From positions 1 to 64,000 of IMG/VR virus record IMGVR_UViG_3300020468_000003: DNA of 64,000 bases, one strand, 5' to 3'. Positions within the stretch are counted from its first letter, which is position 1. Every line of letters starts with the position of its first letter. This DNA comes from a virus. Made by a program: the position numbers and the translations under genes. Below the pieces are notes generated by a model that saw only the letters and a list, made by a program, of their open reading frames with translations, was not told where the DNA came from and made no database searches. Positions 2,447-56,434 of this stretch are shown in pieces.

Positions 2447-3853
2447 TTACATGAGGTTGTTAACTCTAACTCTTCTGTAGTATCTGTTGCTATTAGCAGT
2501 GATACGACCAAGACCAGCAGTTGTTCCTTCAGCAAATGGGTTGGAAACAAGACCATAACGAGTCTTAAATCCGATTTTTGGCTGGAAGGTGTTTTCTCCA
2601 ACTGCACGAACCATCTGTAATGGAACGTATGGGCAGTAGAATAAACCTGCGTCATAAGGTGAAGAACCTTTGTATCCAACAACGTAGTACTGCGCAGCAG
2701 CAACGTTTGCTGAATATGGATCGATGTATACTCTATACTTACCTTGTAAGATACCAGCAAATGTATTACCAGTGTCATCAACGTTAAGGTTAGCGTTAAG
2801 AGCAGGAGTGTAGTCTAGTACACCAGCCATTGTTAATGCAGAAGCAACGTCAGCAGAACAAAGGATCATGTTACCCTTTCCGCGTCTTGTTTCTTGTGCG
2901 ATTGCGTTGGCATCTCTTTCGATCTGGAAGATCAAACCTTTGAACTTCTCAACAGACCATCTACCGTTACTATCAACGTCTAAGTCAAATGTACCAGTTG
3001 AAGCAACGTTTGCCTGTGCACCAGACTTAGCAGCTTTGTATACTGTACGGATAACTTCTCTGTTGATCTCAGCAAGAATCTCAGTAGAAAGAATGTTAGC
3101 AAGTTCTGCTTCTGCATTCAATCCGTGGATTGCTTTGAGGTCTTGAGCAAGTTCTAATGAGTACTCAGCTTTAAGTGCTCTGGACTTAGCAGTCACAGTA
3201 ACTTTCTCGATGCTGAATGCCATCTGGTTGAACTCGTCTCCAGATGTACCTAGATCTTCAGATTGCTCTGTACCCATACCCTGACCAACAGGATAAGTTG
3301 TAGCAGCCTGTGAACCCTCTGGGTTAAGAAGACCTGGATTTGCAGCACTTGTAGGACCAGTTGTACCGAAACCAACGGATTCGCCACCACTATTGGCAAC
3401 GTACTTAGTACCTTCAAGATCAAACCCTGAGTTTTGTCCAGAGAATGATGTATCTGCTTCGTCGAACAATGCTTCTGAACCACCCATAGACTGGAACTTG
3501 GAACGCATTGCGAAGATTAAACCAGTTGGTCCGTTCATTGGTTGTACACCAGCTAGGTCATAAGCGACCAAGTTTGGCATAGAACGACGAATTAAACTGA
3601 TTAGGACTGGGTCAAAACCTGCAACAGGTGATGATGCGTCAGCAGAGAAACCTGCTGTAGATGATGTTGATCCAGTGTTTACTGTTGGCTGCTCAGATAA
3701 GAATTCTCTTTCTTCGTTTACAGCCTTTTCTTGGTTTTCTAACAGAATCGCAGTTACCGCTCTTCGATGTGAATCTTTGATTGGATCCAGACCATCGTGG
3801 TCTAGAATCGGTGCCCACTTCTCCTGTAGATGTTCAGCGTTGAACATTTGCAT
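2447..3853 (-). CDS. g23: Major capsid protein gp23
   Basis: EKWAPIL, FDPVLISLIRR, GVQPM.GPTGLIFAMRS, KSRALKAEYS.ELAQDLKAIHG, FYCPYVPL, FQPKIGFKTRYG. Confidence 0.99.
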   Translation of the reverse strand: MQMFNAEHLQEKWAPILDHDGLDPIKDSHRRAVTAILLENQEKAVNEEREFLSEQPTVNTGSTSSTAGFSADASSPVAGFDPVLISLIRRSMPNLVAYDLAGVQPMNGPTGLIFAMRSKFQSMGGSEALFDEADTSFSGQNSGFDLEGTKYVANSGGESVGFGTTGPTSAANPGLLNPEGSQAATTYPVGQGMGTEQSEDLGTSGDEFNQMAFSIEKVTVTAKSRALKAEYSLELAQDLKAIHGLNAEAELANILSTEILAEINREVIRTVYKAAKSGAQANVASTGTFDLDVDSNGRWSVEKFKGLIFQIERDANAIAQETRRGKGNMILCSADVASALTMAGVLDYTPALNANLNVDDTGNTFAGILQGKYRVYIDPYSANVAAAQYYVVGYKGSSPYDAGLFYCPYVPLQMVRAVGENTFQPKIGFKTRYGLVSNPFAEGTTAGLGRITANSNRYYRRVRVNNLM

Positions 3854-11604: not shown

Positions 11605-11633
11605 AGTTTATCATATAACTTTAATATTTACAA
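11605..11633 (-). promoter_or_regulatory. Sigma70-type promoter for the small ORF / NifU-like unit
   Basis: TTGTAA, 17 bp spacer, TGA-TAAACT. Confidence 0.55.
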
Positions 11634-11670
11634 ATTTTATATTCTCTTTATACTTTATTTTGTTACATAT

Positions 11671-12045
11671 CTAAGTTCTGAAAAGCATTATCTGGTAATT
11701 TAACCATCTTTCAAAATTTACCATTCTAATCCAAATCCAATCCCAAACCATCGTATAATATTGATTTATGTATAATCCAAATAAATCAATCTGCTTGAAT
11801 ATTGGTGTAACTCTATAATCAAATTCTGCTTGAGGTCCAGTATCATATTTTATTTCTTCATCACAAAACTGTTTACTAACTGCACCTTCTTTTACTAACT
11901 TTGCACACAATTCTCTTTTATCAAAAATTTCATACTGTCTTTCTCTCCATCCAGTATAAACACCAGAAACATTACTGTATACAATTAAAGGTACTGCAAA
12001 TGCAACAGTAAAATTAACATATGCTTTTTTTAATTTCTTAAACAT
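11671..12045 (-). CDS. Hypothetical protein with an N-terminal hydrophobic segment
   Basis: ORF track 11671..12060; the ATG at 12045 overlaps the g17 stop (TAATG) and is the more likely start. Confidence 0.65.
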   Translation of the reverse strand: MFKKLKKAYVNFTVAFAVPLIVYSNVSGVYTGWRERQYEIFDKRELCAKLVKEGAVSKQFCDEEIKYDTGPQAEFDYRVTPIFKQIDLFGLYINQYYTMVWDWIWIRMVNFERWLNYQIMLFRT

Positions 12046-23021: not shown

Positions 23022-26000
23022 TATGCTAGTGCAATTGCACGAAGATCTTTAAATCTAGGTGATCTTGCTTCGTTAGTACCATTCATAACCACTTTAATTT
23101 GGTATCCTGTAAACTGTTCAAGATTATCAATACTAAATTGATATTCGTTAAACTCATTCAAATTACTTGGAGTAACATTTGAATCTGCTCTTCCACTGTT
23201 TTTAGAAATATCTATTACAGTATCTCCGAAACCATCTTGATCAGTATCGTTCATATTTTCATAACCAGGGAATAGAACATAAGTTTGTTCCACTTCGCTA
23301 GAATCTGATTTAAACAATCTGTATAGAACTCTGAAATCAGCAGATGCATCTCTGTATGATGCAACAAATACTTTAAGAGAAGTTGCAGGTTGCTCAAGAT
23401 TTACTCTATTAGAAATATAAACTGCTGCATGTGGATCTCCACTAAGTTGATTTGATCTAGAATCATTTACATAATCTGTAATTGGTTTATTCAAACGATT
23501 TCTTCCAAACATTACAAATGCAGTTTGAGTATCAATTGCAGGAGATAAGTTAGGATCTTCTGGATCTCTAGACATAGAAACTCCAACAGTTAAAGAGCGA
23601 TTCTTAGGTAATGCAGTTAATCTAGTAGTTTCATTTACTTGTGAACAAACTATTCTTGTAGTAGAAAGATCATTTACATCATTGATTTGAACTGCTTCAA
23701 AACCTTGATCTATGAATGATGGTTCTACACCACCTGCACTTGTTCCACTAACAGTTCTAATTGTTCCAGTAACACTTGATGATCTACCAGGTGTAATAAC
23801 ATCGAATTGTGGTTGAACTCTATTAAACTGGATGTTTCTAGATGCTCTAATATTTTTTCCACCCACAGTGGATTCATCTTTAAAGTTTAGTGTACTTTCG
23901 CCACTTGATCTACTACCTCTATTAAATTCTACATGATACTTATCAATATCTCTGTAGTTGGATAGACCACTAGACATATTATGTTCTGTGTTAATTCTGA
24001 TTAGAGAAACATCTCCAACTTCATACTTATAAACTGTATCGTTTGTAAAGTGTTTTTGTATTGCAGTTCCATCTACACCACGAGTTGCAATTCCAAGTTG
24101 TCCACTTCCGATACTGTTATAGAAGATAATTTCATTATTAACTTTCAAGTATCCTGAAGCAGTTGTAATTCCTTCAAATGTTGAATATCCAGTTGTGTCT
24201 GCAAGAGATATTTGAGTATCTGATATATCAAGATCAACTGAAAGAGTTGTAGGTACAGTATCAGGTGCGACTCCAGTAATATCAACTACGTTATTATCTG
24301 CACTCATACCATGATTGTAATGATTTATTTCTATAACATTACCAGCATATAATCCACCAACAGCAGTAGAACTAGTAACTTGAGTACTTGCTAACGATAC
24401 GCCAGGTGTATCATTTACATATATCTGTAGATTTCCACCGACAGTAAAGTTATCTCCCTGAACATTTGTTAGATATAGAGTATCAACATCCATTGTATCT
24501 CTAATGGTCATTCTTACTCCAGAACCTTTATTGCCTACATCAGCAGTTGTGATTCCTACAACATCTCCAGTTGAGAATCCATTTCCAGTTTGAATACCCA
24601 AGGTATTCAATACTATTCCATTTAGAGTTCCATCTGCGTTAAACACAACTGTTTGTGCTCTAAGATTTCTTCCTCTACCTACGATTGAATACAATCCTAC
24701 GTCTGTATATGTTCCTGCAGAATAACCAGTACCAACATTTGCGGTTGTAATACCTGTAAAGGAAACACCACCACCAACATTTTCAATATATCCATTTGCA
24801 AGAGATGCACTTTGCTTAACTCTTGCACCTGGTACTAATTGATTAGTAACAATAGAAAGTGTTGTGCTAGTAATTCCTACATCAATCTTTCTAGGATAGA
24901 TCTTAACTGCATCTGGTTGTAATCTAGGTACATTTTCATTTACACTTTCTAAAGGTGGATTATAGAAGAATGCAGTTCCAGCATTTGGAATGAAGTTTGC
25001 TTTATAAAGTTTAAACTTCATATCTTCAAACTGACTTGCAGTCCATATAGTTCCGTTCTGAGACTTGAATAAACTACCACCAATATACTGTCTAGTTACC
25101 ATTACTGCTTCAGCATCAGGTAGATTCTGTCCGTTTATAGTCCTTTCTCCCATCTGAGCAATCCAGACTTCGTAATTGTTTGTTGTTGGTGCTAGAAGAA
25201 CTAGTGCATATTCCCTATTTTGCTGTAAGTAAACTGGTGATGGGAATTTAACATTAGTTGCAACAGAAGCATCAGTAGATACGGTTATATCTGATGGATA
25301 TAAAACTGCTCTTGCATATTCGTGAACCAATCTATCTGTTGGAGTTCCAAGTTCAACTTCTCTAACTTCAACAAATAATTTTTCGTTTGCGTCTTTACTT
25401 GAGAAGTATAAATCTACAGATGTTAGGAATGCTCCTGTTTCATCTACAGTAAATGATTGTGCAAGAGGATCTTTTCCTCCTCTTCTTCTCCTTCTACGAC
25501 GTTGACGTACTGTTTGAACAACAGTATCTTCTCTAAAGGTTTCAACTATTCCACTTGCAGAATATCTTCCTTCTCCATGACTTATTAGTAAACTACCAGG
25601 TAATTGTTCAGCATCAGATTGACTTGTAGTTACTCTAAATGTTCTATCTCCTGATTTAATTCTAACTGTAGGAGGTGGATTTGTATTAGGATCTCTAATA
25701 AAGAATGTTCCTATTAAGTCTCCGAAAGTATCAGTAACTAACCTTACATCAGTAACATTTGCTGTAGCACCACTATTTGCTCCTACAAGAGTCATTCCTG
25801 AAGTTATATACCCAAAGTAAGTTCCTTGAGCATTAGAGCATAGAGAGCGTGTGTCAACGTTAACAGTAGATCCTGATGCGGAGTATTGAGTACTTAATAT
25901 TTCTGAAGTATTATATGGGTTTGCATTGTATGTTACATCTGGTGCATTATAGGTACCATCTTTATGATCAGGTCTTGCTGTTCTAAATGTTATTAATTTT

Positions 26001-30119: not shown

Positions 30120-31700
30120 TTAGAACTCTAGAATAATCTTAATGTCTTCTTTTTGCCTTGCATCTCTAGTAACTATTGGTCTGTTGTCCAAATAGATTAC
30201 ATCACCCGACGTTTTATTTATCTCAGGTTCGGCAAGTCCCTTTGTAAATTGAATCCCAAGGTTGATATTTTTGTTACCAGATGGGTTTGTAGTGATTCCA
30301 GTATATCCATTATCTATTTTTCCAGAAAATCCGTCGCTAGTAAAAACCTTTCCAGATGCATCTGAATCAAAAGAGAATCTCCTACCTTCACTACTTACAC
30401 CAACATAATCTTGTTGATTAAATGTTGATGGATGGTAATTTTGAGATCTGTCTTGGAAAAACTTAATAACTTTAGTAGTTTCATCGTATGATGCAACATA
30501 TCCTTCAGCAGTAACATTGCTGCCATCTACTGTGACACTTTGAGTTATCTTTTTACCCACAGTTAAGAAATTTTCTCCACTAATGGTACCATCGTCTAAT
30601 AATTTAATGGCATTTGTACCAGAAAACTGATTATCATTAAAAACATTAGTAGAACTTCCCCTTAAAGGATTTTTAACTACTGAAATTTGTGCAAATTTAG
30701 TATCTGTTGGGAAATCTTTATCAGAGTCATCAAATCTTGCATATAATAATACTCTGTCAGTACCTAATTCTTTATAAAGATCATGTCCATGTCCCTTAGA
30801 TGGTGGGATAATTGGAATTAATTTAGCAGGGTTAGGTATACTACCAGTTGGTTGTAGTGTTCCTAAATCAACCATCGCATAAGTATAACCTTTTCCTCCA
30901 GAAGAAATAACCACATCTGTTATTCTACCGAGACTATCAACAGTTACAACTGCTTTAGCACCTGAACCATCTCCAACAATAGGAACTTCTCCACCCGCAT
31001 AACCAGCACCAGGATCTTCAATGAAGACATGTTTTATTTGGTTTTCGTTTAAATCGGAATCTCCATTATCCCTAACTGCTTGAATTTGGGAGTCAGTAGA
31101 CGTTGACCAATCATTTGGAACAGAAATATATTCTGTAGAATCAAATTTGATTATATCGCTTGGTGGTACTGTAAATAAGTATTTCCAAGTATACCCATCT
31201 CCACTCTCTCCTGCTTTAGATGGTTCTAAATCAGTGAAAAATGGTTCATCTTCTGAACCTTTACCAGTTGAATTGATACCAGAGGAACCATTGTTAATAC
31301 AAATATAGACTCTGAAATCGCTATTCATCACATAATATTTTGCATCATAAAGTCTTGTTGAGGAAGTTTCTGGAGATTTATTATCAGCACTATAATCGTG
31401 CCTGAATATTTCATACGTGGTTCCACGTTTCCAGTCAACCTTTCTTATTAATCTTCTAATATTAGAAGTACCTAGTTTTTTACCAAAAAGAATAGTATCT
31501 TGTGCGTGATTAACATAATTAAAATTATCTGTAGGATCAGGTGTTGCACTATCCCAGTTTGTTGCTCTACCAAAACCAACTGCATCAGCTGGATTTGCTA
31601 AACCCACGGTAATATAATATGAGTTACTGGTATTACCTACCGACTCAATAAAATTGTTCGCATTTAATATTCTAAATTGGTCAGTAATTATTGCCGACAT
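30120..31700 (-). CDS. g8: Baseplate wedge subunit gp8
   Basis: MSAIITDQFRI.NA, YYVMNSDFRVYIC, DGY.WKYL.T, SG..IYLDNR...R...QKEDIKIILEF. Confidence 0.9.
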   Translation of the reverse strand: MSAIITDQFRILNANNFIESVGNTSNSYYITVGLANPADAVGFGRATNWDSATPDPTDNFNYVNHAQDTILFGKKLGTSNIRRLIRKVDWKRGTTYEIFRHDYSADNKSPETSSTRLYDAKYYVMNSDFRVYICINNGSSGINSTGKGSEDEPFFTDLEPSKAGESGDGYTWKYLFTVPPSDIIKFDSTEYISVPNDWSTSTDSQIQAVRDNGDSDLNENQIKHVFIEDPGAGYAGGEVPIVGDGSGAKAVVTVDSLGRITDVVISSGGKGYTYAMVDLGTLQPTGSIPNPAKLIPIIPPSKGHGHDLYKELGTDRVLLYARFDDSDKDFPTDTKFAQISVVKNPLRGSSTNVFNDNQFSGTNAIKLLDDGTISGENFLTVGKKITQSVTVDGSNVTAEGYVASYDETTKVIKFFQDRSQNYHPSTFNQQDYVGVSSEGRRFSFDSDASGKVFTSDGFSGKIDNGYTGITTNPSGNKNINLGIQFTKGLAEPEINKTSGDVIYLDNRPIVTRDARQKEDIKIILEF

Positions 31701-55570: not shown

Positions 55571-55999
55571 AGTTGTCTTTGGGATTTCTACGGGTTTCGT
55601 GTAGAATCCTGTAATCTTCCATGTCTCGTCGTCATGTGTGATGTCTGTTTCATACGCATGCCATTTACCTTTCAAGAAGATGTAAAGGAATTCGGAACCG
55701 CAGTCAATTTGTGCCAGTTCATCAAGATTTTTTGATAGGACTGGTCCCTCATCTTTCCCACCATAATATTCAACGTGACCTTCGCAATCCTCGAACTCTT
55801 CGGTTTCCTTGTTATACTTGCTTGTAGAAAAGCACGAAGACATATTGCCACCGTCGATGAGTTCGCGAACTGTCTCATCTGTGTTGTAGTGCTCTTCAAG
55901 AGTTACACCCAACCATTCAGGATATCCATCCCAGTGATGATAAACAGAAAGAATGGAATCATCTTGTAATACATAACCAATTCGTGAACGTGTTGACAT
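55559..55999 (-). CDS. Hypothetical early protein (HWDGYP family)
   Basis: MSTRSRIG...SVYHHWDGYP..LG..L...Y...LIDGG.MSS. Confidence 0.8.
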   Translation of the reverse strand: MSTRSRIGYVLQDDSILSVYHHWDGYPEWLGVTLEEHYNTDETVRELIDGGNMSSCFSTSKYNKETEEFEDCEGHVEYYGGKDEGPVLSKNLDELAQIDCGSEFLYIFLKGKWHAYETDITHDDETWKITGFYTKPVEIPKTTRTV

Positions 56000-56020
56000 A
56001 ATGTTTTTAAAAAATGGATT

Positions 56021-56139
56021 GTAGAGGTACTTGCACCAGAGTAATTAACTACTGGGGTCGATCTCGACATTTCAAGAGTGGGACTAAGATGCATCTGCCC
56101 TGTTAAGGTGTCTCCCGCTTCACTATCTCTGCCCTCTAC
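56021..56139 (-). ncRNA. Candidate structured RNA / 5' leader (~119 nt)
   Basis: Starts at the predicted TSS of module 7; terminal helix GUAGAGG/CCUCUAC; internal hairpins GUCGA-GA-UCGAC and CCAG...CUGG. Confidence 0.55.
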
Positions 56140-56145
56140 TCTTAT

Positions 56146-56203
56146 ATAATAAACGATTTTGAGTCGTTTTCAATAAAAAGTGGACACTTATTTAACTGTC
56201 CAC
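56146..56203 (-). promoter_or_regulatory. Early module 7
   Basis: GTGGACACT-TATTTA-ACTGTCCAC; AAACGA/TCGTTT hairpin; TATTAT at 28 bp. Confidence 0.8.
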
Positions 56204-56434
56204 TCTTGATTTTTTGAAGTCGCATTTCATGTAGTCTTGGACTTCATCAATAACTTCACCGAAGTAATCACCCCAATAATCCTTCGCATCATTTAGAAAT
56301 TCATCGTCAGTTTGACCATCAACATATTTGTCCATGTCGTTGTGAACATACTCAACTAAATCTTTAGTGTCCATGTTATCAACATATCTCTCAACAAAGA
56401 AAGATTTGAGCTCATTAATTAAGGCTTTGTCCAT
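56192..56434 (-). CDS. Acidic helical protein (paralog family A)
   Basis: Probable start MDKALINELKSFFVERYVDNMDTKDLVEYV (TAATG overlap). Confidence 0.75.
   Translation of the reverse strand: MDKALINELKSFFVERYVDNMDTKDLVEYVHNDMDKYVDGQTDDEFLNDAKDYWGDYFGEVIDEVQDYMKCDFKKSRVDS

Follow-up and report, generated by a model that had tools for sequence, protein, structure and literature searches.

A previously undescribed structured RNA family of marine phages with a putative homodimer interface

The DNA analysed here, called the window throughout, comprises the first 64 kb (64,000 nucleotides, nt) of a 105-kb virus contig from IMG/VR (IMGVR_UViG_3300020468_000003), and it harbours on its minus strand, at positions 56139 to 56021, an element that is a constrained, folded, non-coding RNA of a previously undescribed family. 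Overall, the element represents a real new structured phage RNA family with a probable homodimer interface, the latter being a perfect 10-nt palindrome (PAL) that covaries among the relatives. An initial annotation, made from the letters of the window, had described a closed RNA in front of a small gene and had proposed a multi-stem non-coding RNA, a riboswitch-like leader or a decoy RNA. The comparative analysis confirms the observation and supports its interpretation as a multi-stem structured non-coding RNA. The closest cultured relatives of the window contig are the T4-like cyanomyoviruses P-HM1, P-HM2 and MED4-213, which belong to phages of Prochlorococcus and Synechococcus, and the element sits within an array of small early-gene cassettes on the minus strand.

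Ten variants with a common fold

The family comprises ten distinct variants of 100 to 166 nt from marine viral and metagenome contigs. The variants were gathered via relatives of the downstream protein and by DNA-pattern scans and were then confirmed by two covariance models, R1 and R2; all of them score between 68 and 124 bits against model R2. In the following, W denotes the window form, and numbers preceded by L or G denote viral or metagenome sequences.

W: window 56139-56021, minus strand, 119 nt
L005 (L006 identical): L005:1014-1179, 166 nt
L090: L090:828-979, 152 nt
L088: L088:843-975, 133 nt
L167: L167:5979-6110, 132 nt
L168: L168:9591-9505, 87 nt, partial because it ends at the contig edge
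L169 (same in L171; L170 partial): L169:3226-3351, 126 nt
L199: L199:9431-9550, 120 nt
L200: L200:2707-2806, 100 nt
L205: L205:1032-1131, 100 nt

The minimal form is thus the 100-nt module of L200 and L205. A common parse covers all nine full-length members, with L168 being partial, and divides the window form into the following parts, all on the minus strand.

56133-56139: 5' strand of helix P1, GUAGAGG, RNA positions 1-7, pairing with 56027-56021
Between P1 and P2: linker of 2-3 nt across members
56127-56130: 5' strand of helix P2, AGAG, RNA positions 10-13, with the partner CUCU at 56078-56075
56117-56126: purine-rich conserved internal loop, AUAGUGAAGC, facing a single A (56079)
56113-56116: 5' strand of helix P2a, GGGA, with the partner UCCC at 56083-56080, followed by the junction GAC (56112-56110; RAC across members)
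56098-56109: variable hairpin P3, ACCUUAACAGGG in the window
Between P3 and PAL: linker of one pyrimidine
56087-56096: PAL, perfect 10-nt palindrome, AGAUGCAUCU, proposed dimerisation site
56075-56086: block UAG-UCCC-A-CUCU with the 3' strands of P2a (56083-56080) and P2 (56078-56075)
56069-56074: junction UGAAA(U), of which UGAAA is invariant
56057-56068: hairpin P5, GUCG-AGAU-CGAC
56028-56056: variable hairpin P6 and junction UGCAAGUA, with CCAG..CUGG at 56055-56036
56021-56027: 3' strand of P1, CCUCUAC, RNA positions 113-119

The 7-bp helix P1 joins the two ends of the RNA and encloses a junction with three arms, namely P2-P2a, P5 and the optional P6. The P2-P2a arm ends in a three-way junction bearing P3 and the palindrome. 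The end pairing that had been noticed in the window is present, and P1 is a full Watson-Crick helix (7/7) in each of its versions, which are GUAGAGG/CCUCUAC, GUAGAGA/UCUCUAC, GUAGGGA/UCCCUAC and CAAGUAA/UUACUUG. Likewise, P2 occurs in four versions (AGAG/CUCU, GGGG/CCCC, AGGG/CCCU and GCAG/CUGC). The complementarity of GGGA (56116-56113) to UCCC (56083-56080) was also described correctly; P2a is invariant in all members and its pairing is therefore consistent with the data but outside the reach of covariation. The hairpin P5 had been read as GUCGA-GA-UCGAC, and while a hairpin indeed exists at this place, it consists of 4 bp closed by a tetraloop. In relatives it reads GCGG-AGAU-CCGC, which corresponds to two compensatory pair changes, and its loop is AGAU except in L169, where it is AGCU. 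P3 varies in length from 12 nt in the window to 59 nt, with 13-15 nt in most relatives and extended hairpins of 45-59 nt in L090 and L005, and shows compensatory changes at two pairs. The second hairpin of the initial annotation, CCAG..CUGG, was found as P6, in which a U-A pair has become U-G in L005; an A-rich linker separates it from the 3' strand of P1. P6 is dispensable because the 100-nt forms lack it. One structural proposal found no support in the comparison: a repeated AGGGCAGA was thought to enable alternative pairings, but its second copy exists only in W and L168 and is not conserved in the other variants.

The comparison carries the fold. When nine full-length members were parsed independently of the models, all 216 of 216 cells in P1, P2, P2a, PAL and P5 were Watson-Crick. 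This parse is given because the model-fitted alignment leans towards the model; in the latter, 97.9% of 242 cells are paired, as compared with 84.0% in shuffles and 39-53% when the partners are slid by 1-3 columns. Moreover, 12 of the 26 modelled pairs change on both sides, and none of 500 shuffles attains the observed covariation score. Covariation, whose absence the initial annotation had named as a reason to abandon the idea, is hence present in several helices. Where wobble pairs occur, they are G-U when read on the strand that encodes the flanking genes. The unpaired core is constrained as well: 20-22 of its 23 alignable positions (87-96%) are identical between the window and relatives, whereas in the adjacent gene the identity at third-codon positions amounts to 61-63%. 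The internal loop follows the consensus (AU)AG(UG)AAGM, with a shorter AGAAGA in some relatives, the block UAG-UCCC-A-CUCU is invariant except for the two inner bases of the P2 strand, and CUUAGUCCCAC is identical in 10/10 variants.

These comparisons also bear on the view that the locus is a small protein gene, for instance the open reading frame (ORF) 55903-56094, or a set of complementary words that arose by chance. The window does contain an ATG-initiated frame of 63 amino acids, and the folding energy of the single sequence is unremarkable. However, there is no frame that stays open throughout the variants. The ORF 55903-56094 lacks conservation: its start codon falls within PAL, which varies in sequence, and four of the five palindrome types no longer contain the ATG. 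Moreover, the variants differ in length by 47, 14 and 19 nt, none of which is divisible by three, and chance is ruled out by covariation. This view, to which we attach a negligible probability, is already refuted by the comparative data, and the RNA can be regarded as non-coding, as had been assumed.

Within the collections scanned, members of the family were found on the contigs listed above. No further copies were found in the window's own genome, which holds a single copy, and weak matches in G014, G015 and G018 look like coding sequence. For cultured phages, three distinct variants were compared by blastn with 50,697 phage records, yielding chance matches only, and model R1 found nothing in P-HM1, P-HM2 and MED4-213. 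A host origin was considered and rejected: the 14 matches that an exact-pattern scan found among 185,579 species genomes all failed the model and are due to chance, and model R2 gave one AT-rich match of 26 bits that lacks the core over 151 sampled genomes from the family of a Synechococcus metagenome-assembled genome. Among the 4227 models of Rfam 15, which include riboswitches, ribozymes, pRNA, C4, 6S, Y RNA, manA, wcaG and PhotoRC, none matches at its gathering threshold across the 64-kb window. At E up to 10 the interval 55900-56300 yields only unrelated sub-threshold matches, and five other variants yield nothing at E up to 1. The statements that the RNA belongs to no known family and that it is not a tRNA have held up accordingly; ARAGORN finds no tRNA or tmRNA genes, 8 unpaired nt lie between the last hairpin and P1, and the T-loop consensus is absent.

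A palindrome that covaries with itself

Every member carries the perfect 10-nt palindrome (AGNNNNNNCU in the window) at a fixed place directly 5' of the invariant UAGUCCCAC. It reads AGAUGCAUCU in W, L199 and L205, AGCUGCAGCU in L169 and L200, AGUUGCAACU in L088 and L167, AGUGCGCACU in L005 and L090, and AGACCGGUCU in L168. All 50 of 50 cells of PAL are paired, the pairs 3-8, 4-7 and 5-6 covary, and the central bases include UGCA, CCGG and GCGC. The otherwise identical modules of L200 and L205 differ by two compensatory double changes only, one in P3 and one in PAL. Within a single molecule PAL could form only a 3-bp stem with a 4-nt loop. Since the two central pairs cannot form intramolecularly, selection on them points to pairing between two molecules, and a symmetric RNA homodimer formed through PAL would be the likeliest reading. 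The palindrome would be largely unpaired in the monomer and would pair with the same site on a second copy.

Thermodynamic modelling is consistent with such a dimer. The self-duplex of the 10-mer has a predicted energy of -13 to -18 kcal/mol, and cofolding puts the PAL duplex between two molecules in 10/10 variants. As a monomer, the modelled RNA leaves PAL unpaired by 22-75% on average, with values of roughly one half or higher in most variants. Dimer energetics were rejected as a proof, however, because generic domain swapping accounts for part of the -8 to -18 kcal/mol gained by cofolding, and for L167, L169 and L200 the mutated control gives no information. Two other roles of the palindrome were also discarded. 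The P5 loop could pair with one half of the palindrome in W, L168 and L169, but the sequences of L200, L088 and L005 break this pairing. The palindrome as a seed for targets in trans found no backing either, because seven other carrier genomes hold their own palindrome once and foreign palindromes are equally frequent.

As a separate observation, AGATGCATCT occurs three times in the window genome, where about 0.1 occurrences are expected by base composition. The two additional copies, at 23342-23351 and 30354-30363, lie inside large ORFs of 2364 and 526 amino acids, respectively. This excess is probably codon-level chance, as none is seen in the seven other carrier genomes.

A symmetric site may also be read at the level of DNA, the palindrome being the site of a dimeric protein or of recombination during cassette exchange and the RNA fold being incidental. 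The palindrome contains no G-U pairs, symmetric changes in two half-sites mimic compensatory changes, and the module is exchanged between genomes, all of which would suit this idea. However, P1, P2, P3 and P5 covary as well, and G-U pairs are restricted to the sense strand, which indicates a folded single strand. Furthermore, sequence conservation would be expected of a protein site, whereas the palindrome has five sequences that differ even between near-identical modules, and each genome contains its own palindrome only once outside coding sequence. Thus, we consider a DNA-level element very improbable.

An early cassette in several gene contexts

The element in the window is flanked by the following features.

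56180-56203, minus strand: upstream cassette boundary, a PeSL-like terminator box with the hairpin GTGGACA-N10-TGTCCAC, followed by T5 (56179-56175)
56146-56173, minus strand: sigma-70-like early promoter TTGAAA-16-TATTAT, with six bases between the -10 box and the first base of the element
56000-56020, minus strand: spacer of 21 nt before the ATG, AAUCCA-U6-AAAAACAUU, resembling an ordinary short early leader
ATG at 55999, minus strand: downstream gene, a T4-GC66 homologue of 146 amino acids (phrog_1987), function unassigned

The boundary hairpin overlaps the stop codon of the preceding small gene (56194-56192), and a ..GTCCAC / GCACAC box is also located ahead of the promoter in L088, L167, L200 and L205. 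Base 56139 lies 7 nt past the -10 box and is the predicted start of transcription. The first base of P1 is directly preceded by a -10 hexamer and 6 nt in W, L005, L090, L088, L167, L200 and L205, while in L169 and L199 the promoter is unclear and P1 is not at a convincing +1. The same promoter end (..TATAAGAGTA) exists in P-HM1, P-HM2 and MED4-213, where it is followed by a leader of only about 26 nt up to the ATG; because these phages keep the promoter end and the short leader, the roughly 119 nt of the element represent an insertion relative to them. Beside this locus, P-HM1, MED4-213 and two metagenome relatives have an extra conserved unit that separates the GC66 promoter from the preceding gene (L003:1760-1900, L004:1790-1960, L007, L089). 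It reads TTATAATAAAGATATACAGAGTTGGGTCGCTCTTTAAATCTTCG..CAAGCAGCT followed by a T-run and may be another small transcript.

The proposal that the RNA is portable cargo behind an early promoter is borne out by its gene contexts. The element is located ahead of a GC66 homologue in W, L005, L090, L088 and L205; in L200 and L168 the ORFs that it precedes are small and unrelated. In most contexts the start codon follows 22-36 nt past P1. In L167, L168 and L200 the gene Kyano_Gp96 (PF23790) lies downstream after small ORFs, and a cytidylyltransferase-cupin (manC-like) gene is situated upstream of the element in L167 and L200. This shared neighbourhood spans L167:4070-7180, L168:8365-9478 (minus strand) and L200:288-4220, and a DUF1281_C-like protein comes next in L168 and L200. 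In L169 the nearest plausible ORF begins 165 nt past the element (L169:3515-3625, plus strand); it encodes 36 amino acids (MGTHYGFTIIVWVIIGLIIFSKLDSGGKKKKKRKNK) with one hydrophobic helix and a lysine-rich tail, and a strong terminator follows at 3635-3651. L199 retains the core with an entirely different P1. This contig, which also appears as L226 (= G039, 14253 bases, element at about 11629-11748), carries a primase-helicase fusion, an NAD-ligase-like gene and a Mom-like modification gene, and CheckV estimates it as 35% complete at 14 kb. Judged by its gene content and by this completeness, the phage of L199 is not T4-like, which means that the element crosses phage groups.

Exchange of the module can be seen at a single locus. 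L088 and L205 have common flanks from the ..CTGTCCAC box to AATTCATTCTAAAAACAAAC..ATG, and their promoter-plus-RNA alleles differ (133 versus 100 nt). Between L088:800-1000 and L209:1320-1505, the sequences surrounding the modules of 133 and 100 nt match completely or almost completely, starting at the CTGTCCAC box and reaching as far as AATTCATTCTAAAAACAAACACAC before the GC66 ATG. The two alleles at one locus present themselves as a clean cassette replacement. Because L088 and L205 share the flanks of that segment, the exchange unit is the promoter together with the RNA, in agreement with descriptions of PeSL cassettes in T4-type phages (PMC2839356; PMC4122927).

The position of the element right after an early promoter, in a region where cassettes end in terminator-like hairpins, might suggest a promoter-proximal RNA like put of HK022 or nut of lambda that modifies RNA polymerase for read-through of terminators between cassettes. 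However, Rfam reveals no similarity to put or nut, most cassettes of the array do without the element, and the self-complementary site has no role in such a mechanism, which makes this explanation scarcely credible. A riboswitch or another ligand- or protein-sensing leader, possibly dimeric, in which binding would stabilise P1 and alter downstream expression, is improbable too. The aptamer-like core, the near-invariant junctions, the peripheral hairpins of variable length and the closing P1 would all be in keeping with it, as would the U-run after P1 in W, L200 and L168, which in the window is the U6 at 56014-56009 recorded by the initial annotation. However, the U-run begins 5-6 nt past P1 and is missing in L088, L205 and L167, and a terminator scan reports nothing there. 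According to the consensus model, the spacer up to the ATG pairs with no part of the element, and with the ribosome-binding region unpaired as well, no expression platform was found. Moreover, the downstream genes encode unrelated small proteins without assigned function and hence offer no common pathway, and no Rfam riboswitch class matches. Among the roles that had been proposed for the RNA, the riboswitch is thus the weakest because it lacks an expression platform and the downstream genes are unrelated.

A second 'closed' leader family was observed at G000 ~71016-71094 (L183, minus strand, ~402-322), 7 kb beyond the window. It directly follows an early promoter, and its arms GGG(G/A)AAACAAA(A)C and GUUUU(U)GUUUYCUC form a closing helix of about 12 bp. 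Leaders of this kind are also present upstream of GC66 in L100, L008, L091 and L101. Those of G000 and L100 are homologous by eye, as they have a common interior and a compensatory change from AGGA/UCCU to AGAA/UUCU, whereas L008, L091 and L101 keep the closing arms around unrelated interiors. Neither model R2 nor Rfam matches the second leader. The words AAUUAC..UGYAAGU that it has in common with the element are too short to argue homology, and a resemblance to the hairpin ribozyme (CAGAGAAA and the words AUUAC and GUCCUGU) was dropped because Rfam finds nothing. The second closed leader is therefore treated as a separate family.

Possible function and relation to known systems

The explanation that we consider somewhat more probable than all others together is that of a self-pairing, structured early RNA, portable with its own promoter, that acts as an RNA in its own right. 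Together with its sigma-70-like early promoter the RNA forms a portable unit, and its synthesis would take place early in infection, where it would be the 5' portion of an early transcript or be released from this by cleavage. Two copies might then associate through the palindrome, and the RNA could, for instance, act on a host or phage factor as its scaffold or decoy; switching one particular gene is probably not its role. A self-pairing scaffold or decoy is favoured because the interface implies a second copy, the identity of the downstream gene is ignored and phage types are crossed. Transcription from 56139, dimer formation and action as an independent RNA are what we infer from this pattern.

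Several points weigh against this explanation. The start site, the 3' end, the processing and the abundance of the RNA are all inferred, and the family is small, with ten variants of which several are closely related. Mutating the palindrome clearly lowers the modelled stability of the dimer in 7/10 variants but not in L167, L169 and L200. Furthermore, PAL is devoid of G-U pairs, and symmetric half-site changes in a DNA operator would look alike. Part of the pair counting used the model-fitted alignment. The single sequence of the window has a best fold of -27.9 kcal/mol (z = +0.34), which 121 of 200 shuffles equal or surpass; the window sequence alone is thus not beyond chance, and the significance of the fold comes from the comparative data. 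Finally, the nearby start codon in most contexts would also fit a leader that acts in cis.

Such a cis-acting 5' leader is the main rival, although on balance it is unlikely. The P1-closed fold would shield the 5' end of an early mRNA from decay by host RNase E/J or would tune the next gene, with a secondary role left for the palindrome and the remaining fold. It is known that 5'-terminal stem-loops stabilise bacterial mRNAs, as exemplified by the ompA leader. In line with this, P1 at the predicted +1 leaves no 5' single-stranded tail in the seven promoter contexts, the start codon is close in most of them, and the second, unrelated closed leader family occupies a like position in this genome and in relatives. 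However, a simple hairpin would suffice for protection, yet about 23 unpaired junction bases are constrained and the self-complementary site covaries. Moreover, L169 and L199 lack a convincing +1 at P1, and the next plausible ORF of L169 is far off.

The idea of an RNA acting in its own right can be extended, more tentatively, to a symmetric RNA particle with a coevolving 10-bp interface that is made within minutes of infection and acts in trans. We regard this extension as possible but doubtful. The particle would trap, for instance, a host factor that is itself a dimer, be it a nuclease, a defence sensor or an RNA-binding regulator, and it would spread among phage lineages as a self-contained promoter-plus-RNA cassette. 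If so, a self-assembling particle that acts in trans would represent a new functional class of phage RNA and not a leader.

To our knowledge, very few structured RNA classes have been described from ocean T4-like cyanophages, and none of them has an assigned function. Natural RNA homo-oligomers have been recognised only recently, and one of them derives from a cyanophage-associated motif. The element described here is compact, its fold is cleanly supported by covariation, and a coevolving self-complementary site is a rare signature. If it has a dimer interface, it would be a second, unrelated cyanophage case, suggesting that RNA self-assembly is a recurring strategy. In addition, the cassette-like spread with a promoter in two phage types demonstrates that non-coding RNAs are shuffled like the small early genes of hyperplastic regions.

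On paper, the element resembles the packaging RNA (pRNA) of phage phi29. The latter has an active core of about 120 nt, an early promoter, a closing helix of its 5' and 3' ends and a three-way junction, and its intermolecular pairing was first inferred from covariation among relatives. By means of two different, mutually complementary loops, pRNA forms rings on the packaging motor of phi29-like phages. The early promoter, the closed ends, the three-way junction and the covarying pairs, putatively intermolecular in the element, are common to both RNAs. In contrast to pRNA, the element has a single self-complementary site, no similarity in Rfam and no link to packaging, and its carriers are T4-like phages and a phage with a primase-helicase fusion. 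We know of no RNA that is used in T4-like packaging. The species 1 and 2 RNAs of T4, rnaC and rnaD (139 and 119 nt), are according to their annotation also small stable RNAs of a T4-type phage without an assigned function. However, they are located in the tRNA cluster, and rnaC has a tRNA-like T arm; a relation to them was discarded because model R2, run with the filters off, has no match over the T4 tRNA region.

With respect to the interface, the element is comparable to palindromic dimerisation sites such as the dimerisation initiation site of the human immunodeficiency virus HIV-1 (DIS; reviewed in PMC7357161), where a short, exposed, self-complementary site keeps its symmetry via covarying changes. 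Those sites are 6-nt loop palindromes in viral genomic RNA, whereas the site of the element has 10 nt and is part of a three-way junction encoded by a double-stranded DNA phage. With respect to its genomic setting, the element recalls the PeSL promoter-terminator cassettes of T4-type phages (PMC2839356; PMC4122927), since it resides in an array of boundaries made of a terminator hairpin and an early promoter and moves together with the boundary. However, PeSL is the boundary itself and works at the level of DNA and transcription, whereas the element is an extra structured RNA after the promoter and is absent from most cassettes.

The closest systems in kind are the manA (RF01745) and wcaG (RF01761) RNAs, which are orphan structured motifs known almost exclusively from marine metagenomes and T4-like cyanophages, where they usually occupy potential 5' untranslated regions (PMC2864571). 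Moreover, manA RNAs of less than 200 nt have been reported to self-assemble into RNA-only oligomers and cages (bioRxiv 10.64898/2026.07.01.735769). Like these orphan cyanophage RNAs, the element occupies potential 5' untranslated regions. It differs from them in having no covariance-model match even at E up to 10, in lying ahead of small early ORFs and not of metabolic genes, and in combining a P1-closed junction with a 10-nt palindrome, from whose covariation its self-association is deduced.

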